Shown: positions 18,012-42,197, numbered from the stretch's first letter. The stretch is 57,816 nt of DNA from Candidatus Brennerbacteria bacterium (GCA_043799565.1 JAZDNP010000004.1:1-57816); one strand, 5' to 3'. Program-made: numbers and translations. Notes: generated by a model not told the origin, from the sequence alone.

Positions 18012-18136
18012 ATGAATCCCGTTAGAAACAACCAAATTTAATGGTTATGCATACCGAAAAACACCTCCGATTGTTTCTAAAGGTCTCGTGTAACATACAC
18101 GGTCGCCTGCAGGCGACCTGTTTCTAACGGGATGAA
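18012..18136 (+). mobile_element. ORF-less mini copy (125 bp) of the ATGAATCCCGTTAGA...TCTAACGGGATGAA element, ending on the pilM start codon
   Basis: 15-bp perfect inverted repeat ATCCCGTTAGAAACA (18016-18030) / TGTTTCTAACGGGAT (18119-18133). ATGAA at both ends. Internal palindrome GGTCGCCTGCAGGCGACC. Confidence 0.8.
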
Positions 18137-19244
18137 TCTCGGTTTTGTTAAGGATTTTTTCACCGACATCAGGAATTTCTTCTCCTTCGGGCGCGTACTC
18201 GGAGTGGATATTGGCACGGTGTCCATAAAACTCGTGGAACTCGCGCGGAAAGGGGATGTCGTTTCTCTCGAGAATTACGGCATGGTTACCTCTAAGGAAT
18301 ACCTGAAGCGTCCGAATGCAGTCGTCCAATCGAGCTCGCTCAAACTCTCCGCGCGCGATGCCGCCCCACTTCTCAAAACATTGGTGGACGAAGTAAAGCC
18401 GAAAGCGAAGAAGGTCATCGCCTCCGTGCCCGCGTTCGCGTCGTTCGCGGTGCCGATAGAAATGCCGCTTATGAGCCGTGAGGATACCGAGAAGTCCATC
18501 GGGTTCCAGGCGCAGCGCTTTATCCCTATGCCGGTCACCGAAGTTTCATTTGAATGGGAAAAGGTGGGGGAATACGAAAGTGCGGAAGGACGGAAGTTCC
18601 AGCGCATTCTCCTTGTTGCGGTACCGAACGAGATCGTGAAGACCTATCGCGAACTTTTTCACGCGGCGGGACTCACCCTTTCCGCATTGGAGGTGGAACA
18701 TACGGCGCTCGCGCGTGCAATAACCTCGCCGTCCTCGCGCCACACGATGCTCGTGGATATCGGGGCCGAATCCACCTCCATCATAGTTACGGAAGGAACG
18801 ACGGTGCGTGCGGTGGGACAGGCGGACTACGGTGCGGTCACTTTAACCCAAGCGCTCGCGCGAAATCTTGGGGTGTCCGAAACGCGTGCGGAAGAGCTGA
18901 AGAAGCGGCGAGGTCTCATGGTGGGTGAGGGAGAATACGAGTTATCCACCTCACTTCTTCCTTTTTTGGATGTTATAATACGAGAGTGCGAAAGGGTGCG
19001 CGCAAGTTATGAGCGCACGTTTGCTCACCCAATCGAGCGTTTCACATTGGTCGGCGGCGGCGCAAATCTGCTCGGCATTGAGCGGTACTTTGCGGAAGCG
19101 CTCGGCATTTCACATGAGCCGGCGCGCCCATTTTCCAAGGTGAGATATGACGCCGGGTTGGAGCCCGCGATGAGGACCTTGAATCACGACCTTGCGGTTG
19201 CAACCGGGCTCGCTTTGAAGGTCTACCTAACCCCTCAACTATGA
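18132..19244 (+). CDS. pilM: type IV pilus assembly protein PilM (actin-like ATPase fold)
   Basis: VLGVDIGTVSIKLVEL N-terminus. 370 aa. First gene of the pilMNO block. Confidence 0.8.
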   Translation: MNLGFVKDFFTDIRNFFSFGRVLGVDIGTVSIKLVELARKGDVVSLENYGMVTSKEYLKRPNAVVQSSSLKLSARDAAPLLKTLVDEVKPKAKKVIASVPAFASFAVPIEMPLMSREDTEKSIGFQAQRFIPMPVTEVSFEWEKVGEYESAEGRKFQRILLVAVPNEIVKTYRELFHAAGLTLSALEVEHTALARAITSPSSRHTMLVDIGAESTSIIVTEGTTVRAVGQADYGAVTLTQALARNLGVSETRAEELKKRRGLMVGEGEYELSTSLLPFLDVIIRECERVRASYERTFAHPIERFTLVGGGANLLGIERYFAEALGISHEPARPFSKVRYDAGLEPAMRTLNHDLAVATGLALKVYLTPQL

Positions 19245-19813
19245 ACGGTATCAATACAACCAACGGAGCTCCCGAAAACGTAGTCGCGGAGCAATTTGCG
19301 CAAGAGCGGTTGCCGGTCGGATGGCCATGGCGCCTTCTTGTTTTTTCCATCGCGCTCTTCGCTTTTTCCATCCTGGTATATTTTGGGATTCGGGTCGGAT
19401 ACTCCGCGTATTTGGAAGATCGCATCGTGGAGGTAGATGCCGCCCTTACCGCGCTTACGAGCGAGGTCACCTCCGCCGACCAGGAGCAGTTCGTGGGTTT
19501 CTATTCGCAGATTGTGAATTTGAAGTCGGTGTTGGAGTGGCATGAATATGGTGCGAACATCTTCACGTTTTTGGAAAAATACACTCTTCCCGAGATTCAG
19601 TTCACGGAAGGTGAGTTGAATGCGGAAGAATTTACACTCTCGCTTCGCGGAAGCGGTGTATCGGTTAATATCGTTGGCCAGCAGCTCGCGGCGCTCGAAA
19701 CGGCGCCCGGAGTTGCGAAGGTGCTTTTGAGGGACGTGAATACGGAAGGGCGTGCTACATTTTCATTCACCATTGTGTTCACTGAAGCGTTCTTTGACCG
19801 CCCATTACTTTAA
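19241..19813 (+). CDS. pilN: PilN-like pilus assembly protein (single TM)
   Basis: ATGA overlap with pilM. TM WRLLVFSIALFAFSILVYFGI. Position in the locus. Confidence 0.6.
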   Translation: MNGINTTNGAPENVVAEQFAQERLPVGWPWRLLVFSIALFAFSILVYFGIRVGYSAYLEDRIVEVDAALTALTSEVTSADQEQFVGFYSQIVNLKSVLEWHEYGANIFTFLEKYTLPEIQFTEGELNAEEFTLSLRGSGVSVNIVGQQLAALETAPGVAKVLLRDVNTEGRATFSFTIVFTEAFFDRPLL

Positions 19814-19818
19814 TCACC

Positions 19819-20388
19819 ATGCGCGTATCCACTAAACGAATTCTTTCCATCCTTGTGGGCCTTGCGTTCCTTATGGGCGCGTTCTTCGTGTACCTCGGGC
19901 TCATTCGCGGGGAGATGACGGAAGCTGAGAGGGTGCGCGGGCTCCTTGCATCCAAAGAAGCTCTTTTCGCGAACCAGGAACGTGCCGTGAATCAGGTGAA
20001 GGATCTCTTGAATGAGTTCAAGAATTTCGCGCGACTTGAAGAAACGGTGAGCCGCGCGGTACCGAACGGCGCATCCACCATTTCCGCACTCCGTCAGTTG
20101 GAAGCGGTAGGGCGTACGGCAGGCGCCGTTATCACAAAATTGGATTTCTCCACTCCCACTCCCAGCTCACGCGGAGCGCCGGGCGCGACGTCGGTAGTGA
20201 AGCGGCTCCGTACGCTTGAGGTAAAAGTGCGTGCAGAAGGTCCCTATGAAAACCTCAAACAATTCACGAAGTTATTGGAAACGAGCGTGCGGGTAGCGAA
20301 CGTTACGCGGCTGAATTATGCGCCGGGAGGCATCGCAAGCTCGGGCGACTCCCTTTCGTTGGAGGTCGATATGTACTATCAAGAATAA
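19819..20388 (+). CDS. pilO: PilO-like pilus assembly protein (single TM + coiled coil)
   Basis: TM ILSILVGLAFLMGAFFVYLGL followed by a coiled-coil-like segment. Position in the locus. Confidence 0.6.
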   Translation: MRVSTKRILSILVGLAFLMGAFFVYLGLIRGEMTEAERVRGLLASKEALFANQERAVNQVKDLLNEFKNFARLEETVSRAVPNGASTISALRQLEAVGRTAGAVITKLDFSTPTPSSRGAPGATSVVKRLRTLEVKVRAEGPYENLKQFTKLLETSVRVANVTRLNYAPGGIASSGDSLSLEVDMYYQE

Positions 20389-20391
20389 TTT

Positions 20392-20679
20392 ATGGCCATC
20401 GTTGTTGAAGAAGAAAAGAAGAAGGCGAACTGGATGACCATCATCTCAGTCGTGGTGTTTCTCGCGGTCGTGTTTTTCGGTGCATACTATCTGTTTTTCA
20501 AACAGCCGGAGCTTATTGATTTGGTCGCACCGGCAGAATTGGAGCGGTTGAGTGCGATATCATCCGTGAAGTTCAACCCCCGCGAAGTGGTGGATGCGCC
20601 CACGTTCAAAGCACTCCGTGATTTTTCCGGCACCAGCACCATACCCCGCACCGGCAAGGCAAATCCATTTGCGCTCTAG
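20392..20679 (+). CDS. small membrane protein of the pilus locus
   Basis: 95 aa with TM WMTIISVVVFLAVVFFGAYYLFF. Tightly packed between pilO and pilB. Confidence 0.5.
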   Translation: MAIVVEEEKKKANWMTIISVVVFLAVVFFGAYYLFFKQPELIDLVAPAELERLSAISSVKFNPREVVDAPTFKALRDFSGTSTIPRTGKANPFAL

Positions 20680-20704
20680 CCCAGGTGAGCGACCATGACT
20701 CTCC

Positions 20705-22432
20705 ATGACCGATCAAGAACTCGCACAAGCACTCGTTACCAAAGGGGTTCTTCGTGACGCCGACCGCGTAGAGCTTGAGAAAGCCACGCGTTTTGGAAGC
20801 ACCTCGCTGGAAGACGCGCTCTACGCGCGTCGTTCTGTTTCGGAAGAGGATATCGCGAGCGTGAAGGCGGAACTTTTGGGAGTGCCCTATCGTGCCGTGG
20901 ATGTGGCCGCTGTTCCCGAAGAGCTTTTCAAAGTAATACCGCGCGAAACGTCGCTCACATACCGCGTGATGCCCATTGAACGCGCGAAGGGGATGCTCGT
21001 AGTCGGCATGCTTCGGCCCGACGATCCCCGCGCACAGGAAGCACTTCGTTTTATTGCAAAACGTGAAGGGGTAAGTTTGGGCGTCTACCTTGTCACTCCT
21101 TCGGCGCTGAACGCCGCATGGCGCAGGTACGCGCCGTATCGCACCGAGGTGGAATCCGCAGTGAAGGAAATCGGTCGTACCAAAGACGACGCGGAGGACC
21201 GCGTGCTCCTTGAAGAGGCGACTGCGGGGGAGGACGCCCCCATTATTAAAATCGTCGCGTCCACGCTCCGCCACGCGGTGGAAGGCGGCGCTTCCGATAT
21301 TCATATTGAACCCCAGCGCTCAAGGGTTCGCATCCGTATGCGCATTGATGGAAAGTTGGAGGAGATAAGCACGTTGCCTCCCTCGCTCGCTCAACCCATC
21401 GTTTCGCGCGTGAAAGTTTTGGCGAGATTGAAGTTGGACGAAACCCGTATTCCGCAGGACGGAAGATTCCGTACGCTCATTCAAGGGCGCGACATTGACT
21501 ACCGCGTTGCCACATTTCCGACGCCTTCGGGCGAGAAAGTTGCCATCCGCGTGCTTGACCCTGCGACCGGGATGAAAGGATTGGACCAGATAGGGCTTGA
21601 GTCGTACCACGCGCCGATTGTGGAGCGCGCGCTCGCGCGACCCTTCGGCATGCTCCTTATCTCCGGCCCCACCGGTTCAGGGAAGACCACTACGCTTTAC
21701 GGCATGATGCAGCGCCTAAACCGCGAGTCGGTCAATATGGTTTCGCTCGAGGACCCGGTTGAATATTTCGTGGAAGGAATGAATCAATCGCAGGTGCGCC
21801 CAGAAATCGGCTACACGTTCGCTTCTGGCCTCCGCCAGATACTTCGGCAGGATCCGGATGTCATTATGGTCGGTGAAATACGCGACGCGGAAACCGCGAA
21901 CTTGGCCGTGAACGCCGCACTCACGGGCCACGTGATGCTCTCCACCATCCATACGAATAATGCGGTGGGCGTCATTCCGCGCCTCATTGATCTTGGTGTT
22001 CCTCCATTTCTCCTTTCCTCTTCGTTGAACTTAATGATGGCCCAGCGTCTTGTGCTCCGGCTTTGTCCGGAGTGTAAGAAAGAGACCAAAGCGCCGAAAG
22101 AAGTGGCCGACGTGATAGACGAAGCGCTCTCTTCGCTTCCCGCGGCAGTAAAGACGGGAGCAAAAATAAAAACACCCTACACCATATGGACCGCGGAACC
22201 GAAAGAAAGTTGTCCGGTGTGCAAAGGGAAGGGTACTGCGGGCCGCGTGGCGCTCTTTGAACTTTTTCAAATGACGCGCGAAGTCGGAGACCTCATTGCG
22301 CGCGCGTTCACCGAAGGGGCGCTCGTGGACGAGGCAAAGCGGCAGGGTATGGTAACCTTACGTCAGGATGGAGTGCTGAAGGCACTCCGAGGCATGGTAT
22401 CAATGGAAGAAGTGATGCGCGAAACCACATAA
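20705..22432 (+). CDS. pilB: type IV pilus assembly ATPase PilB (GspE family)
   Basis: N-terminal T2SS-E N domain. Walker A GPTGSGKTT. Asp/His boxes. Tetracysteine CPEC...CPVCKG. Confidence 0.9.
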   Translation: MTDQELAQALVTKGVLRDADRVELEKATRFGSTSLEDALYARRSVSEEDIASVKAELLGVPYRAVDVAAVPEELFKVIPRETSLTYRVMPIERAKGMLVVGMLRPDDPRAQEALRFIAKREGVSLGVYLVTPSALNAAWRRYAPYRTEVESAVKEIGRTKDDAEDRVLLEEATAGEDAPIIKIVASTLRHAVEGGASDIHIEPQRSRVRIRMRIDGKLEEISTLPPSLAQPIVSRVKVLARLKLDETRIPQDGRFRTLIQGRDIDYRVATFPTPSGEKVAIRVLDPATGMKGLDQIGLESYHAPIVERALARPFGMLLISGPTGSGKTTTLYGMMQRLNRESVNMVSLEDPVEYFVEGMNQSQVRPEIGYTFASGLRQILRQDPDVIMVGEIRDAETANLAVNAALTGHVMLSTIHTNNAVGVIPRLIDLGVPPFLLSSSLNLMMAQRLVLRLCPECKKETKAPKEVADVIDEALSSLPAAVKTGAKIKTPYTIWTAEPKESCPVCKGKGTAGRVALFELFQMTREVGDLIARAFTEGALVDEAKRQGMVTLRQDGVLKALRGMVSMEEVMRETT

Positions 22433-22437
22433 ATAAA

Positions 22438-23508
22438 ATGGATTATCCAAGCAAGCTCAACGAATTACTTCTCATAACCGCGCGGCAAGGCGCGTCGGAC
22501 CTCCACATCGCGGTTGGGCGGAAACCCACCATCCGCGTGGACAGCGTTTTGGTGCCTTTGGAGAAAGAGCCCATTCTTACCAAAGAAGATGCGGAGGGAT
22601 TAGTGAACGCACTGCTTACTCCCGAGCAGAAGGACAAATTTTCCAAACTGAAACAACTGGACTTCTCGTTCAATTATGAGGACAAGGCGCGCTTCCGGGT
22701 GAACGTGTATCTCCAGCGCGGTTTTCTCGCGGCGGCGCTACGTCTCATCCCCGCACAGATACGCACCGTGGATGAGTTGAATCTCCCCCCGCTTCTCCAT
22801 GATTTTTCGAAACTCCATCAAGGATTTGTGCTCGTGGTGGGTCCGGCGGGGCATGGGAAGTCCACCACGCTCGCGGGAATATGCGATGAGGTCAACCACA
22901 CGCGTACCGAGCACATCATCACGGTGGAAGACCCTATAGAATATCTTTTCTCGCAGGACCGTTGCATTATCTCTCAACGTGAAGTGGGGAGTGACGCCGT
23001 GTCGTTCCACGAGGCGCTCCGCGCGGTCCTTCGGCAGGACCCGGGCGTTATCATGATCGGTGAAATGCGCGACCCCGAGACCATCGCCACTGCGATGACC
23101 GCGGCGGAAACGGGACACTTGGTTTTTTCCACGCTCCACACAAATTCCGCTTCGCAGACAATTGACCGCATCATCGACAGTTTTCCTCCGGAACAACAGG
23201 GCCAGGTGGTGTCTCAGCTCGCCTCCACGCTCGTGGGTATTATTTCCCAGCGTTTGGTGCCGCGGATTGGCGGCGGCAGAATGCCCGCGGCAGAGATCAT
23301 GCTTACCAACTCGGCGATCCGGAACCTTATCAGGGAGCGGAAAATCTACCAAATTGACCTCGTGATAGAAACCAGCGTGCAGGAAGGGATGATTTCCCTG
23401 AACCGCTCGCTTGTGAATCTGTTGAAACGGAAGGAAATATCACTTGAAGCGGCGGAATCGTTCTCACTGAATCCCGCTGAACTCCGCATTTTACTTGAAA
23501 GGACGTGA
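22438..23508 (+). CDS. pilT: twitching motility / retraction ATPase PilT
   Basis: 356 aa. ASDLHI, Walker A GPAGHGKST, GEMRD, TGHLVFSTLHTN. Confidence 0.9.
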   Translation: MDYPSKLNELLLITARQGASDLHIAVGRKPTIRVDSVLVPLEKEPILTKEDAEGLVNALLTPEQKDKFSKLKQLDFSFNYEDKARFRVNVYLQRGFLAAALRLIPAQIRTVDELNLPPLLHDFSKLHQGFVLVVGPAGHGKSTTLAGICDEVNHTRTEHIITVEDPIEYLFSQDRCIISQREVGSDAVSFHEALRAVLRQDPGVIMIGEMRDPETIATAMTAAETGHLVFSTLHTNSASQTIDRIIDSFPPEQQGQVVSQLASTLVGIISQRLVPRIGGGRMPAAEIMLTNSAIRNLIRERKIYQIDLVIETSVQEGMISLNRSLVNLLKRKEISLEAAESFSLNPAELRILLERT

Positions 23509-23512
23509 GGTC

Positions 23513-23797
23513 ATGAATCCCGTTAGAGACAACAAAACTTATTATGTTTACGTCTTGCGTAGCACTAAAGATAAACGCTGGTATACTGGACTTACCGATG
23601 ACCTACGGAAGCGCTTCAAGGAACACAATGCCGGACATGTTGGGTGGACAAACGGACGTGGCCCATTCGAGCTCATCTACTACGAAATGTGTAAAAACAT
23701 CACTGATGCAAGGTCGCGAGAGAAGTATTTCAAATCAGGCATGGGCAAGCGCTACTTGAAGAATCGCTTGAAGCGCTTCCTGTCTCTAACGGGATGA
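23513..23797 (+). CDS. GIY-YIG nuclease family protein (94 aa)
   Basis: MNPVRDNKTYYVYVLRS...RWYTGLTDDLRKRFKEH...YYEMC...REKYFK. Start ATG lies in the left arm. Stop TGA overlaps the pilC ATG (ATGA). The track start at 23495 overlaps pilT and is rejected. Confidence 0.85.
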   Translation: MNPVRDNKTYYVYVLRSTKDKRWYTGLTDDLRKRFKEHNAGHVGWTNGRGPFELIYYEMCKNITDARSREKYFKSGMGKRYLKNRLKRFLSLTG

Positions 23798-23798
23798 A
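23513..23798 (+). mobile_element. autonomous-looking copy (286 bp) of the inverted-repeat element, carrying a GIY-YIG ORF, inserted exactly at the pilC start codon
   Basis: 15-bp perfect inverted repeat ATCCCGTTAGAGACA (23517-23531) / TGTCTCTAACGGGAT (23781-23795). ATGAA at both ends. Confidence 0.85.
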
Positions 23799-24999
23799 GT
23801 TCAACTATAAGGCACGTACCGCACAAGGCGAACTCCAGGTGGGAGACGTGGAATCGTCATCGCGCGAAGCGGCGGTGAATATCCTTCTCACGCACGGCCT
23901 CTACGTTTTGACCATTGAGCCGGTGAAGGAGGACAAGTGGTGGAACCGCATTACGGATTTCTTCGAGCGCGTGAAGGTCGCGGACCTTATGATATTCACC
24001 CGGCAGTTCGCGACCTTGATTGCTTCGCAGGTGCCTATCGGCGACTCGCTCCGCTCGCTCTACGAACAGATCACGAAGCCGGTCCTGAAAGAGGTCATTG
24101 CGGAGGTCACTTCCGACATTGAATCGGGTTTCTCGCTTTCGCAGGCGCTCGCGCGGCACCCCGGCGTATTCAACGAATTTTATGTGAATATGGTGAAGTC
24201 CGCCGAAGTCACCGGCCGCCTCTCCGAAGTGCTGGACTTCCTTGCGGACTATCAGGAGAAACAATCCATCCTCATCGGGAAACTGCGGAACGCATTGGTC
24301 TACCCCGCGTTCGTCGTCGGGCTTTTCGTGCTCGTCGTCATCATCATGGTCACCATGGTGCTTCCGCAAATTGCCCCTATTTTTGCAGAAGTATCGGTGG
24401 ACCTCCCATTTTTCACGCGTGTTCTTCTTGCGACGGGTACTTTTATGTCCAACTATTGGTGGGTACTCCTTATTCTCATCGGAGTGCTCGTGGCGCTGGT
24501 CATTGACTACCTTCAAACCACGGAAGGAAAGGCGGTAGTGAACGAAGTGAGTTTGAGAATTCCGTTCGTGGGGAAACTACTCCAAAAGGTTTATATTGCG
24601 CGTTTTGCGGAGTCCGCGCGGGTACTCATTAAGGGAGGTCTTACCATCCCACAAGCGATAGAAATCTCCTCGCATACCATAGGAAACTATGTGTACGAGG
24701 ATATTTTGCACGAAGTGGCACAATCCATCCGGAAAGGGCTCCTTCTTTCGCAGGCCCTGAAAGGCGCTCCCTATTTCCCGCCTTTGGTCTACCAACTGGT
24801 TTCGGTGGGCGAATCCACCGGCAGATTGGAATCAATGTTGGAGCGTGTATCCGCGTTCTACAACCGTCAGGTGGACGACACGGTATCCAATTTGGTGGAG
24901 CTCATTCAGCCCGCGCTCCTTGTGGTCATCGGGCTTATGGTTGCAGGGCTCTTTGCCGCGATACTTTTGCCTCTCTACAACCTTACGAAAGCGTTCTGA
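23794..24999 (+). CDS. pilC: type IV pilus platform protein PilC (GspF family)
   Basis: 401 aa, two GspF-type repeats, three TM segments. Follows pilB and pilT. Confidence 0.9.
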   Translation: MKFNYKARTAQGELQVGDVESSSREAAVNILLTHGLYVLTIEPVKEDKWWNRITDFFERVKVADLMIFTRQFATLIASQVPIGDSLRSLYEQITKPVLKEVIAEVTSDIESGFSLSQALARHPGVFNEFYVNMVKSAEVTGRLSEVLDFLADYQEKQSILIGKLRNALVYPAFVVGLFVLVVIIMVTMVLPQIAPIFAEVSVDLPFFTRVLLATGTFMSNYWWVLLILIGVLVALVIDYLQTTEGKAVVNEVSLRIPFVGKLLQKVYIARFAESARVLIKGGLTIPQAIEISSHTIGNYVYEDILHEVAQSIRKGLLLSQALKGAPYFPPLVYQLVSVGESTGRLESMLERVSAFYNRQVDDTVSNLVELIQPALLVVIGLMVAGLFAAILLPLYNLTKAF

Positions 25000-25045
25000 T
25001 ATAATGAAAACGTCCTGAAAGGTCGAGGAAAAAGATTCAACAAAC

Positions 25046-25453: not shown

Positions 25454-25461
25454 GCGTTCTT

Positions 25462-25908: not shown

Positions 25909-25911
25909 GAA

Positions 25912-33212: not shown

Positions 33213-33230
33213 AGTTGAACGTATTATTTG

Positions 33231-34606: not shown

Positions 34607-34625
34607 CGAAGGCTTTATCAACCGG

Positions 34626-34655
34626 AACGAGCGAGAAAAATTCTCGCTCGTTTTC
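34626..34655 (+). terminator. rho-independent terminator
   Basis: AACGAGCGAGAA-AAA-TTCTCGCTCGTT followed by TTCATTT. Confidence 0.7.
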
Positions 34656-34678
34656 ATTTCAATTCCCTTACCGATATG

Positions 34679-34974
34679 TTGCGGGGGCGGGAATTGAACC
34701 CGCTGCCTTCTGGTTATGCATCTCGCTACGGCTTTCGCCGCCTCCGACATAAAGTCGTGAGTTTGCGGTCTGGACTATACCTTCACCCCTAAGGGTGCTC
34801 GCCGTCTAGTCTCTACACCTTGTCGCGCGAGGCGACCTTGGCTCGGTATTACCATTTCTCGAATTGAAAAGAAGGCTTCACCGAGTTTGACGAGTGTTCC
34901 ATGAATCCTTTCGGAATCATGAGCCCAAATTGAGCCAGGCGTGCAACCGTTACACTTCCCCGCGGAAAAAGTAT
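34679..34974 (-). tRNA. initiator tRNA-fMet(CAT) interrupted by a 224-nt group I intron in the anticodon loop
   Basis: Exon 1 (34974-34943): CGCGGGGAAGTGTAACGGTTGCACGCCTGGCT. Exon 2 (34718-34679): CATAACCAGAAGGCAGCGGGTTCAATTCCCGCCCCCGCAA. C1:A72 mismatch and A73 as in bacterial initiator tRNA. The spliced loop would be CTCATAA. Confidence 0.85.
34719..34942 (-). ncRNA. group I intron (IC3-like, no ORF)
   Basis: The 5' exon ends in U and the intron ends in G. P2 is CATGATTCC-GAAA-GGATTCATG. Core strings CCGAGCCAAGG and AAGGTGTAGAGACTAGACGG...CCTTAGG...GGTATAG closely resemble the Azoarcus tRNA-Ile intron core as I recall it. Confidence 0.85.
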
Positions 34975-35054
34975 AGCAGTTCGCCTTTGAAACGCAAGCG
35001 AGAAAAAATACCAGCGGAAATGGTACAATTACCTATGTAACGTAGGTATCAAAC

Positions 35055-35735
35055 ATGCGCGTAAAGGAAAAAACCCAGGCCGTTCTTATGCGAAAAAAAG
35101 GAATGAGTATGGGAGAAATTGCAAAGAAACTCCAAGTCAGTAAGGCCTCAATAAGCCGGTGGTCTCGGGGCATAACATTATCTATCGCACAAAGGAAAAA
35201 ACTTGACACACGCCGGCGAGCTATAAGTATTGCTACACTCCGACGTGCCGCGGAAATAAAAAAGGAGGAAAAATCCGCTGAAATAAAAAAAGTTCGCGCG
35301 AACGGAAAAAAGGAGGTCGGCGCATTAAGTGATAGGGATTTTTTCATTGCCGGCCTAGCGTTGTATTGGGGAGAGGGAGGAAAAGGAGGAAAAGCGGGAG
35401 TCGAGTTCACCAATTCAGAGCCTACGAGTATTATGTTTGTCGTGCGATGGCTTAAAAAATTTTATGGAATTTCAAGAAAACATTTAAAACTGCGTGTTAC
35501 CATAAACAGAATACACGAACCGCGCATTCGCGAAGTGTTAAGATTTTGGTCGGGCCTCGTACGTGTATCGTCCTCACAATTTTCCCAAACCAGTTTTGTA
35601 AACACTAGGCAACGCCGATTGTACAAAAATTTTGCTACTCATTACGGCACATTGCGTTTGAACGTAAAAAAGAGCACCAACCTTCACCGCCGAATCATAG
35701 GGTCGATGGAGGTTCTGCAAACGATTGGTAAATAA
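35055..35735 (+). CDS. HTH + LAGLIDADG-like (single-motif) putative homing endonuclease
   Basis: N-terminal HTH MSMGEIAKKLQVSKASISRW. FFIAGLALYWGEGGK resembles a LAGLIDADG motif. A/T-rich gene sandwiched between two CAT-anticodon tRNAs. Confidence 0.55.
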   Translation: MRVKEKTQAVLMRKKGMSMGEIAKKLQVSKASISRWSRGITLSIAQRKKLDTRRRAISIATLRRAAEIKKEEKSAEIKKVRANGKKEVGALSDRDFFIAGLALYWGEGGKGGKAGVEFTNSEPTSIMFVVRWLKKFYGISRKHLKLRVTINRIHEPRIREVLRFWSGLVRVSSSQFSQTSFVNTRQRRLYKNFATHYGTLRLNVKKSTNLHRRIIGSMEVLQTIGK

Positions 35736-35778
35736 ATCTTGCCGTCTCACTTAGTTCAGTTTATGCTGTTTTTGTAGC

Positions 35779-35850
35779 GCCAGGGTAGCTCAGTGGTAGA
35801 GCGAGGGACTCATAAGCCCTAGGTCGGGAGTTCGATCCTCCCCCCTGGTA
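35779..35850 (+). tRNA. elongator tRNA-Met or tRNA-Ile2 (anticodon CAT)
   Basis: GCCAGGGTAGCTCAGTGGTAGAGCG-AGGGA-CTCATAA-GCCCT, T-arm GGGAG-TTCGATC-CTCCC, G1:U72. Confidence 0.85.
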
Positions 35851-35857
35851 CTGATAT

Positions 35858-36997
35858 ATGAAAGAAATCGTCATTGACTCAGCGGAAGAAAAAAAATTAC
35901 GCGCAGAATTGGAGAAACGGACGGACCCCAATGGACTCCGTATGGCGCGGTTTCTCAATATGCCGGACCTCTCGCGACGAGAAGGCAGTCCTATTGCGGA
36001 AATCGTCGCACGCATATTGGCGAGCCCGTATTTCAAAGATCTCGACATTATCAGAACCCCCGAAATCGTGCCGGCGGACGTGAGTTTCGATCTCTTTGAT
36101 TTTCCTTCCGACCATCCCGCACGTAGCCCATCGGACACATATTATGTGAATGATGGGAACATTTTACGCACCCACACCACCATCATGTGGTATTACTACC
36201 TTTTAAATGAAGACGTGAAGGCGCGTATCGCGGTGAGCGAACCGGTGGGCTGTTTCAGCTTCGGGAAGGTGTACCGTAGGGACGAGATAGACAGGAATCA
36301 CATGAACGTGTTCCATCAGATTGACGGCTGGTATCTTGCGCCAAAATCTTTAAAGACGATAGGGATTAAGGAATTGGAAGAGGCGCTTGGCGCTATCGCG
36401 ACCGCGGTATTCGGGCCAAAGGTGAATTTTCGTTTGAACAAAGACACGTTTCCATACACCGACCCTTCGCTTGAAATGGAGGTTGAGATAAACGGAGAAT
36501 GGGTTGAGGTCGTCGGCTGTGGCGTGGTAAAAGGGAGTGTGCTCGAAAAAATGGGCGTTGACTCGTCGAACTATACCGGATGGGCGTTTGGTTTCGGGTT
36601 GGAGCGTTTGGCAATTGTGAGCATGAGCCTTCCCGACATCCGGCTTCTTTGGTCCGAGGACGAACGCGTGAAGCGTCAGCTCAAACTCGGAAACGAGTAT
36701 AAAGAGGTGAGCAAATTCCCTCCCATCACGCGCGACATCTCATTTGTGGTTGATACAGGTTTTGTGCCGAACGATTATTTTGACCTTATCCGGGACATCG
36801 GTGGCGACATCGTGGAAGAAGTAACACTTTTGGATAAGTATGAAGATGAGAAAAAGTTTGGAAGTGGTAAGATAAGCTACACCTACCGAACGGTGTATCG
36901 TTCGAACGAGCGGACGCTTACCGTGGAGGAAATCACTCCGATACAGGAGGACATAACCAAAGAAACAAAAAAGCGGTTCAATGCGCAAGTACGCTGA
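35858..36997 (+). CDS. pheS: phenylalanyl-tRNA synthetase, single-chain form: alpha-type catalytic core fused to a C-terminal FDX-ACB anticodon-binding domain
   Basis: Class II motifs FDFPSDHPARS, GKVYRRDEIDRNHMNVFHQIDGW and GWAFGFGLERLAIV. These are followed by KFPPITRDISFVVD...DLIRDIGGDIVEEVTLLDKY...SYTYRTVYRSNERTLT. Confidence 0.8.
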   Translation: MKEIVIDSAEEKKLRAELEKRTDPNGLRMARFLNMPDLSRREGSPIAEIVARILASPYFKDLDIIRTPEIVPADVSFDLFDFPSDHPARSPSDTYYVNDGNILRTHTTIMWYYYLLNEDVKARIAVSEPVGCFSFGKVYRRDEIDRNHMNVFHQIDGWYLAPKSLKTIGIKELEEALGAIATAVFGPKVNFRLNKDTFPYTDPSLEMEVEINGEWVEVVGCGVVKGSVLEKMGVDSSNYTGWAFGFGLERLAIVSMSLPDIRLLWSEDERVKRQLKLGNEYKEVSKFPPITRDISFVVDTGFVPNDYFDLIRDIGGDIVEEVTLLDKYEDEKKFGSGKISYTYRTVYRSNERTLTVEEITPIQEDITKETKKRFNAQVR

Positions 36998-36998
36998 T

Positions 36999-37430
36999 AT
37001 GACGCCCATCATTAAATTTTTCGACAAACTTGAGGACAAGGTACGCGGATGGCTTTCCCACTATCCGATCCTCTACGGTATCATTGGCGGCATCGGTACG
37101 GTGCTCGCGTGGCGTGGTATTTGGCATACGACGGATTTCATTTCGACCCATTACTTCCAGAACGGCACCGAAGGAGTCCTTGGTACCATGAACTACCCCG
37201 TGCTTTGGGATGGCCTTGCGTCGCTCATTATCGGTGTGGCGATACTTCTTGCGACAGGCCTCTTTGTCGCGGGTTTTATTGGGGATCACATCCTCATCTC
37301 GGGATTGCGTCACGAAAAGAAGGTTACTGAGAAAACCGAGGAGGAAGTTGAAGAAGAGGCGGTGCGATTAAAAGGATTAAAGGTCCAACTGGACAGGATA
37401 GAGAAGCGATTGGAAGAAATGAAAAAATAG
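36999..37430 (+). CDS. hypothetical membrane protein with a C-terminal coiled coil
   Basis: Two TM helices (YPILYGIIGGIGTVLAW, LASLIIGVAILLATGLFVAGFIG), then an EEEVEEEAVRLKGLK segment. ATG lies 1 nt after the pheS stop. Confidence 0.55.
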   Translation: MTPIIKFFDKLEDKVRGWLSHYPILYGIIGGIGTVLAWRGIWHTTDFISTHYFQNGTEGVLGTMNYPVLWDGLASLIIGVAILLATGLFVAGFIGDHILISGLRHEKKVTEKTEEEVEEEAVRLKGLKVQLDRIEKRLEEMKK

Positions 37431-37458
37431 AAAGGGCCCCCGATTTCAAGGAGACCCT

Positions 37459-38103
37459 TTATTGTTTTTGAACCGCTTCTTTGAGCGTGATGCCGACTTC
37501 ATCGTCCGCAAGATAGACGGAGATGAATGGATAATGGAACGGATGGGGATTTGAAGAGACCTCTATCGTGCCGCTCACCTCTGTTTTGCCCGCCGCGTCC
37601 ACTGCCTGCACCGCAAAGCGCGTTCGATCAGGAGGCAGCATTCCATAAGGAATGCGGAACGCGTGCGCCGCGAGCGGTTTTCCGCCGAATGCAAAAGTTC
37701 CATAAAATGCATTTCGCGCATCGTCCTTAAAGAGCCGTTCGCACTCGCGTATGAAGCGAATGACATCAGGGCCGAGCGTCTTCTTCAGTTTTCTCGGAAT
37801 CCATACTGCGGAACGGTAATGGGCGGTATCGGAATGGAATTGTGCCCACACCTTCCCGTTCCCGTCCTTGAGTTCCATGAAGAACTCTTCTCGATTGCCA
37901 GACTTCCAGCGGGTTGCGAGAAGCTCGAACTGTGAAGGCAAAAGCCCCGCAATTCCTCCCAGAATCCGTTCATACCATGCAACGTCCCATTCTGCCTCGT
38001 AGACGGTCCGATGAACGGTTTCTGATGCTTTGGCAGTACGCTGTGCGGTACCGATGGTCGCGACAATGAGCGACAGGAAAAGCACCACCGCGCTATGTTT
38101 CAT
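37459..38103 (-). CDS. secreted hypothetical protein
   Basis: Signal peptide MKHSAVVLFLSLIVATIGTAQRTAKA. No family recognised. Confidence 0.55.
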   Translation of the reverse strand: MKHSAVVLFLSLIVATIGTAQRTAKASETVHRTVYEAEWDVAWYERILGGIAGLLPSQFELLATRWKSGNREEFFMELKDGNGKVWAQFHSDTAHYRSAVWIPRKLKKTLGPDVIRFIRECERLFKDDARNAFYGTFAFGGKPLAAHAFRIPYGMLPPDRTRFAVQAVDAAGKTEVSGTIEVSSNPHPFHYPFISVYLADDEVGITLKEAVQKQ

Positions 38104-38138
38104 TTCTTCCTCCTCGGATGTGAATGACTGGCGCTATT

Positions 38139-40292
38139 TTACTCGAAGTGTACGCGCTTGGCGAATTCCGTAAGCCGGGCACGTAAATTCGGCTCCCGAG
38201 CGAGTTCCGGATCCTTTTTGAGAATAGCTTCGGCCGCCAGGCGGGCTTTTGGCACGAGCGTGGGATGCGCCAAGGCCTTCATCGCAATATCGGGCATTCC
38301 GGTCTGCACGGTACCTAGGAATTCTCCCGGTCCTCGGAGCTTCAGGTCTTTTTCCGCAAGCTCAAAGCCGTTCTTCGCGCACACAACCGCCTCCAGGCGC
38401 TCACGCGTGGCTTTTGTGGAGGATTCGGTGAAGAGAAAGCAGAACGACTGGTGGAAGCTTCTGCCCACGCGCCCGCGAAACTGGTAGAGTTGGGCGAGGC
38501 CGAAGCGCTCGGCACTTTCCACTATCATCACGGTCGCGTTTGGCACGTCCACGCCCACCTCCACGACGGAGGTGGCGACGAGAATGTCGGTCGTGCCTTC
38601 CGCAAACCGCCGCATGATCTCCGCTTTTTCTTTTGCCTTCAGCTTTCCGTGGAGCATCTCAACTTTTAGGTCGGGAAATATTTTTTTTGAGAGCTTCTCG
38701 TATTCCTCCGTCACGTTTTTCATTTCGAGCCGTGCGAGCGTTAAAGGGTCGAGCGTTTCCCCGGTCTCAATGTTGGTAGGTTGAATGCGTGGGCAGATGA
38801 CGAACGCCTGCCTCCCCTTTTTCACGAATTCCTTAATGAACGAGTAGGCCTTCATGCGATTCTCTGGAGCCACCACCTTTGTGAGGATCTCTTTCCTGTC
38901 CTTCGGGAGCTCGGTGATCTGTGAAACGGTAAGGTTGCCGAAGAGAGTAAGAGCGAGCGTGCGGGGAATAGGAGTTGCGGACATGGAGAGGAAGTGGGGA
39001 GCGGCGCCGTCCTTTGCGAGCGCGGCTCGCTGCGCCACGCCGAAACGGTGTTGTTCATCCACCACCACAAACGCGAGGCGATGGAAGCTTACCCCCTTCT
39101 CGATGAGTGCGTGGGTGCCTATGGTAATAGCAACCTTCCCTGCTTTCAGTAACGCGCGAAGTTCCTCTTTTTTTATCTCTCGCTCCAATCCCTCGCCGAG
39201 AAAAATATATGTTTCGCTTCCGGTGAAAAGAGCGATACCTTCCTCAAAGTCGGGGAAGAATTTTTTGAGCGTCGCGTAGTGCTGGAGTGCGAGTATCTCG
39301 GTCGGCGCCATAAAAGCCGTTTGGTACCCCGCTCCCGCGACTGCGCGCGCCGCGATGGCCGCTACCACGGTTTTCCCCGACCCCACGTCTCCTTGGAGAA
39401 GCCGGTTCATCGGGTGAGGAGCGGTTATATCGTCCAGTATCTCGTGGAGCGCTACCACTTGTGTATCGGTAAGCGTGAAGGGAAGTTTCGCAATCACCTC
39501 TTCTAAACGTTTTTTAGGAAAACGAATTGGATTCGCGTTCTGCTGTTTTATGCGCGCGCGTTCGCGGGCGTTCACGAACTCAAGAAGAAAAAGGTCTTCA
39601 AATGCAAAACGCCGCCTCGCTTCTTCGGCCTCTGTGAGTTCATCAGGGAAATGCGCGTGGCGAAGCGCAACGTCGAGCGGAGGGAGTCCTTCCTTTTTGC
39701 GTATCTCGTGCGGGAGAAATTCCTCCGCATCGGCAGATTCGAGGATTGGGCGAAGGATATAGCGGATACCTTTGGATGTGAGCCCGCGCGTTTCTGGATA
39801 AATGGGGACGATGCGCGCGGTGTGGGTGGGGCTAGCCCGGCGCTCGGTCGCCCAAGGGTCGTGGCGTTCGTGCTCGCGCACGAACTCGAACGCGGGATTG
39901 GAGAAGTAAAGTTCGCCGTTCTCGCCCTCCGACACTTTGCCGGAGAAGTTCGCCCTGATGCCGGGACGGAGCGTGTTCGAGAGGTATGGTTGGTTGAACC
40001 ACACCGCGCGGATGAAGTCCTCGCCGTCCGTGATGACGGCTTCCGTAACGTAGTAGGTGCGGCGCCATGTTTTTCGGCCCGTTATCTCATAGATCTCGCC
40101 TTGAATGGTCGCGTCCTGGCGCGGCTCCAGTTCCGCGATGCGGTACACGTGTGAATAGTCCTCATACCGCGAAGGAAAATGGTAGAGGAGATTGCGGACG
40201 GTGGTGATGTTAAGGCGTTTTAATGACGCAAGATAGCGCGGCGCGATGCCGTGGATGTCTGCGAGAGACGTCTCAAGCGCGATTCCACCCAT
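38139..40292 (-). CDS. recG: ATP-dependent DNA helicase RecG
   Basis: Wedge/OB N-terminal domain, Walker A GDVGSGKT, DEQHRFG, and helicase C motifs QFRGRVGR. Confidence 0.92.
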   Translation of the reverse strand: MGGIALETSLADIHGIAPRYLASLKRLNITTVRNLLYHFPSRYEDYSHVYRIAELEPRQDATIQGEIYEITGRKTWRRTYYVTEAVITDGEDFIRAVWFNQPYLSNTLRPGIRANFSGKVSEGENGELYFSNPAFEFVREHERHDPWATERRASPTHTARIVPIYPETRGLTSKGIRYILRPILESADAEEFLPHEIRKKEGLPPLDVALRHAHFPDELTEAEEARRRFAFEDLFLLEFVNARERARIKQQNANPIRFPKKRLEEVIAKLPFTLTDTQVVALHEILDDITAPHPMNRLLQGDVGSGKTVVAAIAARAVAGAGYQTAFMAPTEILALQHYATLKKFFPDFEEGIALFTGSETYIFLGEGLEREIKKEELRALLKAGKVAITIGTHALIEKGVSFHRLAFVVVDEQHRFGVAQRAALAKDGAAPHFLSMSATPIPRTLALTLFGNLTVSQITELPKDRKEILTKVVAPENRMKAYSFIKEFVKKGRQAFVICPRIQPTNIETGETLDPLTLARLEMKNVTEEYEKLSKKIFPDLKVEMLHGKLKAKEKAEIMRRFAEGTTDILVATSVVEVGVDVPNATVMIVESAERFGLAQLYQFRGRVGRSFHQSFCFLFTESSTKATRERLEAVVCAKNGFELAEKDLKLRGPGEFLGTVQTGMPDIAMKALAHPTLVPKARLAAEAILKKDPELAREPNLRARLTEFAKRVHFE

Positions 40293-40306
40293 AAAGTCGG
40301 CATATT

Positions 40307-40413
40307 ATACCCCGTTCAAAGTAGTAGTTCAACGGAAAAATTTACTCGCGGTTGTATAGCGTGTGTTTATACGAAGCTTCAGAACCCAAACCCAAAACTT
40401 TGAACGGGGTTAT
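40307..40413. repeat. inverted repeat ATACCCCGTTCAAAGT / ACTTTGAACGGGGTTAT enclosing about 75 nt (MITE-like or structured RNA)
   Basis: Arms at 40307-40322 and 40397-40413 (15-16 matching positions with one indel), between the recG start and the tRNA-Lys 3' end. Confidence 0.55.
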
Positions 40414-40440
40414 AGCCGATTTTTTCTGGATTTTCTATTG

Positions 40441-40511
40441 TGCCCCCACTAGGAATCGGACCTAGATACACCGCTTAAGAGGCGGGTGCTTTACCATTAA
40501 GCTATGGGGGC
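40441..40511 (-). tRNA. tRNA-Lys(CTT)
   Basis: GCCCCCATAGCTTAATGGTAAAGCA-CCCGC-CTCTTAA-GCGGT. T-arm CTAGG-TCCGATT-CCTAG (C at position 55). Confidence 0.8.
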
Positions 40512-40597
40512 AATGATATGAACTGGCGGGACAAAAAACAGTATATCCGATATGCTGGAATCAGTTCAACCACAACTTCATTTACAGGGAGAAAGAC

Positions 40598-40820
40598 CAT
40601 GGCGAGGCAAAAGAGCGCGCGCAACCGGAAATCGCGGAAATCTGCAAGGGTCAGTTTGCAGGAAAGAATGGATAGAATTGGTAAGATCAGAGAAAAGATT
40701 AGGAATGTCAGAAATTTCCGGTCGCTTCTCACGAAAGGCCAGAAGAAACGCCTTGATCGCAGACATCGGCGTTTCATGAGCGGCAGAGCGAAAATGTGGT
40801 GCGTCGGCGATTTTTTGTGA
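40598..40820 (+). CDS. possible small, highly basic protein (74 aa)
   Basis: GGGAGA RBS-like string upstream of the ATG at 40598. MARQKSARNRKSRKS... The region has overlapping ORFs on both strands, so coding status is uncertain. Confidence 0.3.
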
Positions 40821-41082
40821 ACGCGCCAGGCGCACATAATTATTCCACGACCGCCTAATCTCCACGGAGGCCCGTATGGCATGTTCAAAGTTCTTTCACA
40901 GTACAAAACCCTGGCTCCGTCTTCTCTCGAAGTCCGAGAAGAAACAGGTTAGGGAATTTGGGGACGCTCTCGCGCGTGGAAAGATTAGAAAGTGGGTGCT
41001 TTCCACACAAGTGGAACGTGCTGGTACCTGTGCTGGTGATTGACCTCATGAAAGGCTGCACGATGTGCGGCCTTTCCTATTT

Positions 41083-41955
41083 TTATGAACTTATTGCCGA
41101 GAGGAAAATGACGCTCGCGATGGTGACCACGACGCCCACAACTTGGTGCCACTTAAGGCGTTCCTTGTTCATAAAAACGCCGAGGAGTACGGCAAGCACG
41201 ATGTAGCTCTCACTTATGGTGGTGGCAATGGCAATAGGGATGTAGGTGGTAGCAACTGCGAATGATATCCACGCAAGGTTGTCTAAAACACAGACGCCGA
41301 GGATAGGAACGGTGTGAGCTCGGATGTCTGCCACGAGTTCGCGGAGCTTATGGTGACGCGCGAGATAGACAAGGCAGACTGCGGTAAAGAGAAGGTTGGT
41401 GAACCATACCGTGAGGAGAGGCGAGGTCTCCTGACTCCCGACGCCGACGAGAAAATTGAAAAGCCCCATTCCGATCGCTCCGAGGCCTGCGAATACCACC
41501 CCTTTCTCTATCCTGATGCGGCGGTGGTAGTGAAGGTGAGTATGGTGCTCGGTGACCGCAAGCACGATGCCGATGAGCGTCGCGAGCGCGAGGAGTAGTT
41601 GCACGAGGGTGATATTCTCGCCCCAGATGAGCGTGGAAAGGCCAACAGTGATGACAAGTTCGAATCCAAGGACCGGTTCCACTATCGCGAGCTTGCCGCG
41701 ACGTAGCGATTCGAATTCAAACAGAGCGGTGAAAAGTACCACTATACCCGCGAGCGAGAGAAGGGCGAGGTGTTTGGGAGAACCGAAAAGATCGTCGAGT
41801 TCCCCAATGATGAACGGGAAGATGGTGACAATCCCGGCGACGCCAATGAAAAACAGCGCTTTCCATATGCCGACTGCGCGGCTGGAACGTTGGATAAAAA
41901 AATCGCCGAACCCCCATGCGAAAAGTGCTCCGAGCGCAAAGAAAATGCCGGTCAT
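41083..41955 (-). CDS. EamA/DMT family transporter
   Basis: 290 aa, about 10 TM helices in two repeated halves. WGFGDFF and similar EamA-like segments. Confidence 0.7.
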   Translation of the reverse strand: MTGIFFALGALFAWGFGDFFIQRSSRAVGIWKALFFIGVAGIVTIFPFIIGELDDLFGSPKHLALLSLAGIVVLFTALFEFESLRRGKLAIVEPVLGFELVITVGLSTLIWGENITLVQLLLALATLIGIVLAVTEHHTHLHYHRRIRIEKGVVFAGLGAIGMGLFNFLVGVGSQETSPLLTVWFTNLLFTAVCLVYLARHHKLRELVADIRAHTVPILGVCVLDNLAWISFAVATTYIPIAIATTISESYIVLAVLLGVFMNKERLKWHQVVGVVVTIASVIFLSAISS

Positions 41956-41965
41956 AAATTTATAG

Positions 41966-42037
41966 TGCCCTCGCCCCGATTCGAACGGGGAATAGCTGCT
42001 TCGAAGGCAGCCGTGATATCCGTTTCACCACGAGGGC
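41966..42037 (-). tRNA. tRNA-Arg(TCG)
   Basis: GCCCTCGTGGTGAAACGGATATCACG-GCTGC-CTTCGAA-GCAGC, T-arm CCCCG-TTCGAAT-CGGGG. Confidence 0.88.
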
Positions 42038-42083
42038 GAACGAGACGTTTCCTTGTTCCGCATTCAATGTACAATGAGAAATG

Positions 42084-42197
42084 ATGAATCCCGTTAGAAA
42101 TTGTGGTGCTATTCATCCTATACGCATGAACTATTCAATACTATATCCTGCGAACATCAAGCAGTCGAGCATGCCCTACTATTTCTAACGGGATGAA
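42084..42197 (+). mobile_element. ORF-less mini copy (114 bp) of the inverted-repeat element, ending on the cca start codon
   Basis: 14-bp perfect inverted repeat ATCCCGTTAGAAAT (42088-42101) / ATTTCTAACGGGAT (42181-42194). ATGAA at both ends. Confidence 0.8.

Follow-up and report, generated by a model that had tools for sequence, protein, structure and literature searches.

What carries the same short inverted repeat to the start codons of three genes within one stretch of bacterial DNA, and why does only one of the three copies enclose a nuclease gene? The stretch, referred to below as the window, is the whole of the 57,816 nt analysed from Candidatus Brennerbacteria bacterium (GCA_043799565.1 JAZDNP010000004.1:1-57816); the copies, A, B and C, occupy the start codons (ATG) of pilM, pilC and cca, respectively, and only copy B bears the gene, which encodes a protein of the GIY-YIG family. 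Here, I argue that the three probably represent a widespread family of very small selfish elements, resembling insertion sequences (IS), in which a hairpin-recognising nuclease is combined with start-codon capture; among the explanations weighed below, the most likely is selfish DNA of an IS/REPIN-like kind with a habit of capturing start codons.

The exact 11-mer ATCCCGTTAGA occurs six times in the window against 0.78 expected, a number reached in none of 100 shuffles, and the six matches form three inverted pairs (18016/18133, 23517/23795 and 42088/42194). The ends of the element are a perfect 13-bp terminal inverted repeat (TIR), T or C followed by CCCGTTAGANNN (that is, T/C-CCCGTTAGA-NNN), outside of which lies a 4-bp target-site duplication (TSD). 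The three copies, with their open reading frames (ORFs) and host genes, are laid out as follows.

17999-18004, plus strand: -10-like box TAGAAT, 7 nt 5' of the captured ATG of copy A, a putatively leaderless-type arrangement
18012-18041, plus strand: first mini-ORF of copy A, nine codons (MNPVRNNQI*) from the captured ATG, its stop overlapping the next ATG (TAATG)
18013-18016, plus strand: left TSD of copy A, TGAA, which with host A18012 gives the captured ATG (4-bp TSD model)
18017-18132, plus strand: copy A, a nuclease-less miniature of 116 nt with T...A ends, between comF (minus strand) and pilM (arm search)
18017-18030, plus strand: left arm of copy A, TCCCGTTAGAAACA (arm search)
18041-18127, plus strand: second mini-ORF of copy A, 28 codons, with the arm TAA as its stop, 4 nt 5' of the pilM ATG
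18101-18118, plus strand: subterminal GC hairpin of copy A, GGTCGCCTGCAGGCGACC, adjoining the right arm (sequence and fold)
18119-18132, plus strand: right arm of copy A, TGTTTCTAACGGGA, with TAA at 18125-18127 (arm search)
18133-18136, plus strand: right TSD of copy A, TGAA, the final base of the element being the A of the pilM ATG (18132) (4-bp TSD model)
18132-19244, plus strand: host gene pilM (PilM_2), ATG at 18132 (Pfam; start codon kept in relatives)
23513-23797, plus strand: GIY-YIG nuclease ORF, 94 aa, from the captured ATG, its TGA overlapping the pilC ATG (Pfam PF01541)
23514-23517, plus strand: left TSD of copy B, TGAA (4-bp TSD model)
23518-23794, plus strand: copy B, the full element, 277 nt with T...A ends, between pilT and pilC (arm search)
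23518-23531, plus strand: left arm of copy B, TCCCGTTAGAGACA, coding N-P-V-R-D (arm search)
23781-23794, plus strand: right arm of copy B, TGTCTCTAACGGGA, coding L-S-L-T-G (arm search)
23795-23798, plus strand: right TSD of copy B, TGAA (4-bp TSD model)
23794-24999, plus strand: host gene pilC (T2SSF), ATG at 23794 (Pfam; homologs all 401 aa)
42070-42075, plus strand: putative -10-like box TACAAT, 8 nt 5' of the captured ATG of copy C
42084-42188, plus strand: mini-ORF of copy C, opening at the captured ATG and closed after 34 codons by the arm TAA (42186-42188), 4 nt 5' of the cca ATG
42085-42088, plus strand: left TSD of copy C, TGAA (4-bp TSD model)
42089-42193, plus strand: copy C, a nuclease-less miniature of 105 nt, between tRNA-Arg (minus strand) and cca (arm search)
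42194-42197, plus strand: right TSD of copy C, TGAA (4-bp TSD model)
42193-43647, plus strand: host gene cca (tRNA nucleotidyltransferase, PolyA_pol and HD domains), ATG at 42193 (Pfam)

The sequence-only reading, made before this analysis, had drawn attention to mirrored differences between the arms, and these can indeed be read from the window (AGAAACA/TGTTTCT in A, AGAGACA/TGTCTCT in B, AGAAAT/ATTTCT in C); the coordinates and stop-to-ATG spacings that it gave for the ORFs of all three copies are correct, and the host ATGs that it assumed are the true starts, PilC homologs all being 401 aa long and the PilM and PilC proteins of syntenic relatives beginning at the same codon. That the internal ORFs always end in the right arm is true as read, but it is built into the arm and brings no independent signal: of the three frames of TGTCTCTAACGGGATGA, one contains TAA, another contains TGA, and the remaining one is that of the host ATG, so that any frame reaching the arm must either stop there or fuse to the host protein. 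When folded as single-stranded DNA (ssDNA), copies A and C are each closed by a stem made of the two arms (z = -6.5 and z = -4.2, respectively). As to the neighbourhood of copy A, the longest comF-like ORF (17298-18035, minus strand; TTG start at 18035) extends into its left arm; alignment with relatives places the real comF start at about 17972 (MYSWWH...), and the ComF-like protein of the window is without about 21 residues of the second zinc-ribbon segment that relatives have.

Is this architecture a peculiarity of the window? A protein-similarity scan, with one genome per species, matched at least 599 stretches, at least 472 of which encode relatives, and the best 80 loci were used; a pattern scan of metagenomes for nuclease-less copies returned at least 120 stretches. 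The element survey covered 200 related loci together with the window, and found 255 elements. Since the metagenome scan demanded ATGAAT...ATG, the metagenome loci were left out of the TSD statistics, and in the 130 elements whose flanks were not selected the outer pair of the inverted repeat is T:A in 88 and C:G in 34. An exact 4-bp direct repeat borders 77 of these 130, and comprises 11 different tetramers: TGAA in 54 cases, TTTA in 4, TAAA, TCAA, TGAG and TGGA in 3 each, TGCG and TTGA in 2 each, and TGAT, CTGG and CAAG once each. The duplication of ATGAA proposed at the outset is therefore real as a direct repeat, but consists of a host A followed by a 4-bp TSD (TGAA) that varies by site; TSD models of 6 bp (ATGAAT) or 5 bp (ATGAA) fit more poorly than a 13-bp inverted repeat with a 4-bp TSD once the C..G-type elements are included. 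A TSD of fixed length and variable sequence next to TIRs is what classical TIR-bearing IS and miniature inverted-repeat transposable elements (MITEs) exhibit.

The identity of the outer pair has a consequence for the host gene. When inserted at a start-codon TGAA, C..G-type elements turn the host ATG into GTG (...CGGGG|TGAA...), as in the three cases below, which suggests that T..A ends, as found in the Patescibacteria lineage, are adaptive in that they restore ATG.

L042, 4118-4186: C..G-type element leaving a GTG start
L065, 10219-10297: C..G-type element leaving a GTG start
L076, 6572-6847: C..G-type element leaving a GTG start

Two full C..G-type elements with a TTTA duplication (L050, 9985-10263, and L054, 7362-7639) lie inside the prepilin leader motif G|FTLIE of pilin-like genes, where the left arm reads G-F-T-P-L-E-I in frame, a mimic of that motif.

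The sequence-only reading treated the elements as inserts, and comparison with relatives supports this status both at the syntenic loci and in homologous genes elsewhere. In comF-pilMNO-pilB-pilT-pilC loci that encode PilC homologs 77-95% identical, pilT and pilC are separated by a short spacer only, without copy B, in L201 (Candidatus Brennerbacteria), L202, L203, L207 and L208, and comF and pilM by a gap of 26-89 nt, without copy A, in L201, L203 and L204; host genes at these empty sites begin at the same ATG as in the window. The closest relative (PilC 95% identical, DNA 83%) reads ...GAAAGGACGTAGAATGGATAT|ATGAAGTTCAACTAT... at the place of the 277-bp element. Elsewhere in the set of loci, element-free homologs exist for more than 20 host proteins and start at the ATG found after the right arm, and the empty sites of homologous genes hold a single copy of the duplicated bases, e.g. 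ATGCG or ATGAGT. Given the TSDs and the empty sites, the elements are true DNA insertions at host start codons. The junction that holds copy B in the window is occupied in L204 (7557-8000; Candidatus Jorgensenbacteria, GCA_043807585.1) by an analogous element with a different nuclease family, a 131-aa PD-(D/E)XK ORF (PF13366 PDDEXK_3) between inverted repeats of its own (GATGCGAATATACGAAT... / ...ATTCGTATATTCGCATC) that ends 5 nt 5' of the pilC ATG.

Full elements of about 277 bp with the ORF are greatly outnumbered in the surveyed loci by miniatures of about 100-125 nt (typically 110) and 60-75 nt (typically 66) and by hairpins of about 20-30 nt (typically 25), and miniatures are present in the same loci as full elements. 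One of them, L087, retains recognisable GIY-YIG motifs, so that miniatures derive from full copies by internal deletion. Those of about 110 nt have an AT-rich interior and a GC hairpin against the host-proximal arm; in 35 of 138 miniatures a hairpin adjoins that arm, against 8 with one at the left arm. Tandem arrays occur as well, in which a full or miniature element is followed directly by another, with one ATGAA in common (...CTAACGGGATGAATCCCGTTAG...).

L037, 5262-5661: tandem array
L071, 2136-2534: tandem array
L062, about 9993-10285: tandem array
L047, about 9985-10268: tandem array

The minimal hairpins consist of the arm core alone and lie beside genes (L032, 556-580, and others; e.g. 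CCCCGTTA-GAAAG-TAACGGGG). The architecture recurs in hundreds of independent assemblies (NCBI, JGI, ENA, Logan), and in the 80 loci picked by protein similarity, which test the arm sequence independently of the element finder, both arm cores are found around the ORF in 70, across Patescibacteria, Omnitrophota, Planctomycetota and Thermodesulfobacteriota.

The protein of copy B has PF01541 as its sole domain (Pfam, E 1.8e-16). Nearly all of its 3535 homologs are 94 aa long, their named sources being mostly Patescibacteria/Parcubacteria, and their termini are the translated arms, MNPVRD at the N-terminus and KRFLSLTG at the C-terminus (the latter in 89 of 120). The protein is conserved while synonymous sites are saturated, a sign of purifying selection. 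Its AlphaFold model (pLDDT 83.5) is predicted to adopt a compact GIY-YIG fold, whose top Foldseek match is the UPF0213 structure 1zg2 (TM 0.50), followed by Slx1 (7cq2/6seh); the C-terminal half (KSGMGKRYLKNRLKRFLSLTG) is specific to the family. No NCBIfam family was matched above its cut-off, the group I intron endonuclease model TIGR01453 scoring 21.7 against a cut-off of 56 bits, and tblastn against plasmids and phages gave only weak matches of about 40% identity. Two homologs are also associated with repeats: a 96-aa GIY-YIG protein of Neorhizobium (40% identical to the window protein, E 6e-12), whose gene is bracketed by inverted copies of CGTCATCCTCGGGCTCGACCCGAGGATCCAC, and a 94-aa protein of Planktothrix (40% identical, E 4e-13), whose gene is accompanied by GTCAT-bearing repeats.

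Literature searches, by topic and by arm sequence, found no description of this element, and the nearest published system is the Ssn family described by Chenal et al. (Nat Commun 2025, PMC11893778). SsnA of Neisseria meningitidis is a 94-aa single-domain GIY-YIG protein (CDD cd10448); its substrate is ssDNA carrying the NTS hairpin repeat, to which it binds and on whose upstream side it cuts, it is inactive on double-stranded DNA and RNA, and it still cuts when the stem is made from two separate oligonucleotides (PMC11893778). Homologous ssn genes typically lie between two such repeats, termed SRM and defined by the pattern HGTCWYN(0-2)YYVSBRHN(0-5)WNVSBRGN(0-2)RNCYNB; membership by sequence takes either cd10448 as top CDD match or a blastp E<1e-10 to SsnA CAX49033.1 (PMC11893778). 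The authors likened NTS-ssnA-NTS to an insertion sequence and to RAYT/REP, and their paper mentions neither Patescibacteria nor start codons nor target duplications (PMC11893778). The hairpins around the Neorhizobium gene are NTS-like and fit the SRM pattern, and the minimal arm-core hairpins are the form in the present family nearest to the short SRM hairpins.

Are the arms, then, maintained as a stem? Among 150 distinct arm pairs, positions 10, 11 and 12 show 62, 51 and 59 double-sided changes, respectively, with only 4-5 unpaired cells each and three or four types of Watson-Crick pair at each position; the covariation score is 0.226 against 0.104 +/- 0.005 after shuffling, was equalled in none of 500 shuffles, and collapses in slid registers. 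The element finder demanded CCCGTTAG and CTAACGGG, which makes arm positions 1-8 uninformative in these counts and in those of wobble pairs given below. The mirrored changes noticed in the three window copies thus extend, as a compensatory excess, to a much larger set. Constraint acts on the DNA itself: in the protein-selected loci the synonymous sites of the right arm do not vary (CTA for Leu92 and ACG for Thr93, each in 76 of 76), whereas the adjoining Arg88 is CGC in 37 and CGT in 37 and codons of the body use all synonyms. Compared with the full copy of the same locus, miniature arms differ at positions 9-12 in 29 of 37 cases, with pairing kept, which is what a structure-reading enzyme would tolerate.

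For 77 of 88 T..A-type elements, the insertion coincides exactly with the start ATG of an ORF that spans 60 aa or more, and elements at start codons are always co-oriented with the host gene, be it topA, pyrG, cca, a pilin or another of a diverse set; full C..G-type copies sit a few nt 5' of the start codon, the duplication contributing the stop codon, and C..G-type miniatures are also found away from start codons and between genes. TANNNT boxes are commonest 6-9 nt before the captured ATG (67 of 176 elements), an arrangement also visible at empty sites, and Shine-Dalgarno-like motifs occur in only 19 of 176, a pattern that may reflect frequent leaderless-type starts. A literature search for leaderless translation in Patescibacteria found nothing.

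What happens to translation between the captured and the host ATG? The sequence-only reading proposed a relay of termination and reinitiation in every copy. In 130 non-redundant miniatures, the frame of the captured ATG has no stop short of the arm stop or the host ATG in 62, against 16 +/- 3.6 with shuffled interiors; within interiors alone, the captured frame is free of stops in 65 and the other two frames in 27 and 15. These two comparisons served as controls, the other two frames of the whole element being invalid for that purpose as the left arm carries TGA and TAG in them. By class, the captured frame leads to the arm TAA in 59 miniatures (38 open), to the TGA in 43 (19 open) and into the host frame in 28 (5 open), so that in-frame fusions to the host are depleted; the encoded peptides show no conservation beyond the arms. 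The excess of open frames and the depletion of fusions indicate selection that favours ribosomes remaining on the mRNA until they reach the host ATG and disfavours N-terminal fusions. This selection is not universal: the relay is a tendency and not a rule, about half of the miniatures having internal stops.

Taken together, these data suggest the following cycle. The full form encodes the 94-aa nuclease alone, with first and last codons inside the arms, and miniatures are its internal-deletion or hairpin derivatives. In ssDNA, presumably the substrate, the arms would pair into a stem, which the nuclease, as the putative mobilising enzyme, may recognise through its sequence over the conserved first 9 bp and solely through pairing at positions 10-12, cutting beside it if the biochemistry of the related Ssn nucleases is a guide; the persistence or movement of miniatures might depend on the enzyme in trans, in the manner of REPINs and RAYTs. 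In the Patescibacteria lineage, T...A ends and a preferred target TGAA within A|TGAA recreate ATGAA on both sides, the left copy keeping the host promoter and initiation signals, often leaderless-like, to drive the element ORF. The host ORF would then be translated by termination-reinitiation, through the ATGA overlap in full copies and through TAA-N4-ATG or ATGA in miniatures, and this coupling may be what sustains host-gene expression. A bolder version, which I put forward tentatively and hold to be somewhat short of an even chance, is that the elements transpose autonomously by a mechanism of a new class and, at about 277 bp, are the smallest transposons known. Their sole enzyme would be a GIY-YIG ssDNA nuclease that recognises hairpins and works by hydrolysis, in place of a DDE, HUH, serine or tyrosine recombinase; the elements would insert at T-N-N-A with a 4-bp duplication and, in Patescibacteria, would have specialised on the A|TGAA of often leaderless start codons, usurping host initiation and passing ribosomes to the host gene through termination-reinitiation.

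Several points weigh against a selfish element moved by its own nuclease. GIY-YIG nucleases hydrolyse DNA and have no known strand-transfer activity, which leaves the origin of the 4-bp TSD unaccounted for. The best phmmer match in the PDB is UPF0213 (1zg2, E 2.4e-9, residues 6-57 only), and the similarity of the window protein to UPF0213 is of the same order as to the Neorhizobium and Planktothrix homologs; the SRM pattern has no match in the window, in 169 miniatures or in 77 full elements, while the Neorhizobium control hairpins were found by it, and an arm is half a stem where NTS is a self-contained hairpin. Several insertions in the same gene are common to different species (L019/L029, L044/L053, L021/L038, L035/L045), so that many copies are old. 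Finally, coupling cannot be obligatory, given the captured-frame stops in about half of the miniatures, and the occupancy of start codons could result from survivorship instead of targeting.

The age of many insertions, together with purifying selection on the nuclease, would also suit a domesticated system that serves the host, as proposed for SsnA/NTS in Neisseria, for instance by restricting or shaping the recombination of incoming ssDNA at marked genes. There, SsnA cuts NTS ssDNA and NTS-gene-NTS configurations reduce transformation (PMC11893778), and copies A and B of the window flank genes of the type IV pilus and competence (comF, pilM, pilT, pilC). Yet the neighbouring host genes are diverse, close relatives do well without the insertions, tandem arrays and TSDs speak of repeated insertion, and a host function leaves start-codon capture unexplained; domestication thus appears unlikely.

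Rather improbable, too, is a non-autonomous MITE family, in which an unlinked transposase, e.g. of the DDE type, would move arms that are ordinary TIRs, the GIY-YIG ORF being cargo or a homing-type hitchhiker. TIR and 4-bp TSD together are the textbook mark of DDE transposition, miniatures far outnumber full copies, and the lack of known strand transfer by GIY-YIG enzymes fits as well. But about 1.9 Mb of related loci yielded no larger parent bounded by these ends, only neighbouring or degenerate arms, and there is accordingly no sign of a conventional transposase parent; an apparent pair of arms 1055 bp apart in L032 proved to be a solo 20-nt hairpin and a separate miniature. ORF and arms are associated in 70 of the 80 protein-selected loci and in several phyla, the arms overlap the ORF ends, strict Watson-Crick covariation at three variable positions is unexpected for TIRs that a protein reads, and related Ssn nucleases specifically recognise flanking hairpins (PMC11893778).

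Could the arms act in RNA instead? The cassette would then pair in the mRNA as a processing or regulatory stem, such as an RNase III site or a translational switch, with selection on RNA and not on mobility. The host mRNA includes any element located at the start codon, and the stems would form there too; the open-frame excess and the stop-to-ATG geometry suggest a role in expression, and miniatures are polarised relative to the host gene (35 against 8). But non-Watson-Crick cells on the sense strand are 4 G:T against 10 A:C, without the wobble excess that would mark an RNA stem, which is hence unlikely as the main constraint, and the RNA-structure reading of the arms was rejected on these counts; the TSDs and empty sites attest to insertion of DNA, C..G-type miniatures stand in non-start and intergenic contexts, and no Rfam family was matched at the arms at gathering thresholds in a search of the whole window. 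The original suggestion of a hairpin in ssDNA or RNA holds as regards pairing, with DNA favoured, the Ssn enzyme acting on ssDNA only and showing no RNA binding. An RNA cassette is quite improbable as the explanation, and RNA effects may coexist with DNA mobility. Chance or misassembly, that is, short palindromic motifs near start codons with no unity, has nothing but the shortness of the arms in its favour and deserves practically no weight, being already refuted by the 11-mer excess and by the recurrence of the architecture across independent assemblies.

If the nuclease does mobilise the element, this would be transposition without a known recombinase by an element of under 300 bp. For the tiny, gene-dense genomes of the candidate phyla radiation, start-codon capture would offer a route to near-neutral parasitism, and it predicts a measurable translational coupling. 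More practically, the elements give rise to systematic gene-calling errors, namely false N-terminal extensions, ORFs of 30-40 codons and the labelling of GIY-YIG genes as 'excinuclease ABC subunit C', and the stem, conserved but for 3 bp that are free to vary, is a ready substrate for studying the specificity of what is presumably a new ssDNA nuclease.

The window has other features besides. On the minus strand at 48636-49001, a 121-aa 23S_rRNA_IVP ORF (PF05635, E 3e-36) is wedged between two minus-strand genes and between 24-nt inverted repeats (48623-48646 / 49008-49031), another cassette of small ORF and inverted repeat in the same genome. An ORF of 174 aa at 52798-53322, with a PaaX_M / Cas2-like domain (E 2.6e-15), lies between the halves of a 39-nt inverted repeat that is 77% complementary (52761-52799 / 53367-53405). 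A tRNA-like gene at 34690-34965 (minus strand) is apparently interrupted by a group I intron (Rfam RF00028 at 34755-34942, 50.2 bits), with exon-like flanks GCGGGGAAGTGTAACGG...CTCAAT and ...GGTTCAATTCCCGCCCCCGCA and no ARAGORN call. Lastly, a 997-aa ORF at 54020-57013 (plus strand) has no Pfam match and consists of repeated units, in direct repeat families D1-D6, that include (S/N)GNVGIGTTTP; the ORF downstream of a miniature in L032 has a motif much like it.

How, then, does the element compare with known systems? Homing endonucleases (I-TevI, Seg proteins) also are selfish GIY-YIG genes between or before host genes, but they have a DNA-binding domain, enter one allelic site by recombination and lack TIRs, TSDs and miniatures; the present protein has 94 aa and no extra domain, and the insertions precede many unrelated genes. 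UPF0213 (YhbQ/YazA, with BH0048 and EF2693; 1zg2, 1ywl) and the structure-selective Slx1, the best fold matches, are both small catalytic cores acting on structured or branched DNA; UPF0213 genes, however, are single-copy and in a housekeeping context, e.g. yazA beside trmNF, with no known flanking repeats, and Slx1 has extra domains and the partner Slx4. Bacterial MITEs and small IS, of which the Correia elements of Neisseria are an example with TIR and TSD, likewise have short TIRs and short target duplications, measure 60-130 nt and lie beside genes with effects on expression; here, the full element has about 277 bp and no DDE, serine or tyrosine recombinase, and its arms covary as a stem.

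IS200/IS605 elements have neither TIR nor TSD. The RAYT/REP-REPIN system, whose enzyme is an HUH Y1 transposase of the IS200/IS605 type, differs accordingly from the present one, with its TIRs, 4-bp TSD, start-codon insertion and a hydrolytic GIY-YIG protein as the only ORF of the element; both combine one enzyme-bearing copy with many short, hairpin-forming, enzyme-less copies, in both it is pairing and not sequence that is conserved in part of the stem, and ssDNA is the presumed substrate. The analogy with RAYT/REPIN drawn by the sequence-only reading was therefore apt, and it has a published GIY-YIG counterpart in Ssn with its NTS/SRM hairpins (PMC11893778). Ssn and the present family have in common a single-domain 94-aa GIY-YIG protein, a gene between inverted stem-forming repeats, and extra copies of the repeat elsewhere. 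In the present family the arms lie inside the ORF ends and their sequence CCCGTTAGA falls outside the SRM pattern, the elements sit at or just 5' of host start codons, the hosts are mostly Patescibacteria, and insertion, not shown in the Ssn paper, is demonstrated by the 4-bp TSD and the empty sites. To sum up, beside Ssn the present element stands as an IS-like unit whose ends are split stems within the ORF; it has a 4-bp TSD, demonstrable insertions and miniatures, and, as a trait specific to Patescibacteria, it captures A|TGAA start codons. The 2025 study left open whether units of nuclease and hairpins are mobile, and the family described here, through its TSDs, its empty sites in close relatives, its tandem arrays and its deletion derivatives, gives the first clear sign that such a member inserts.

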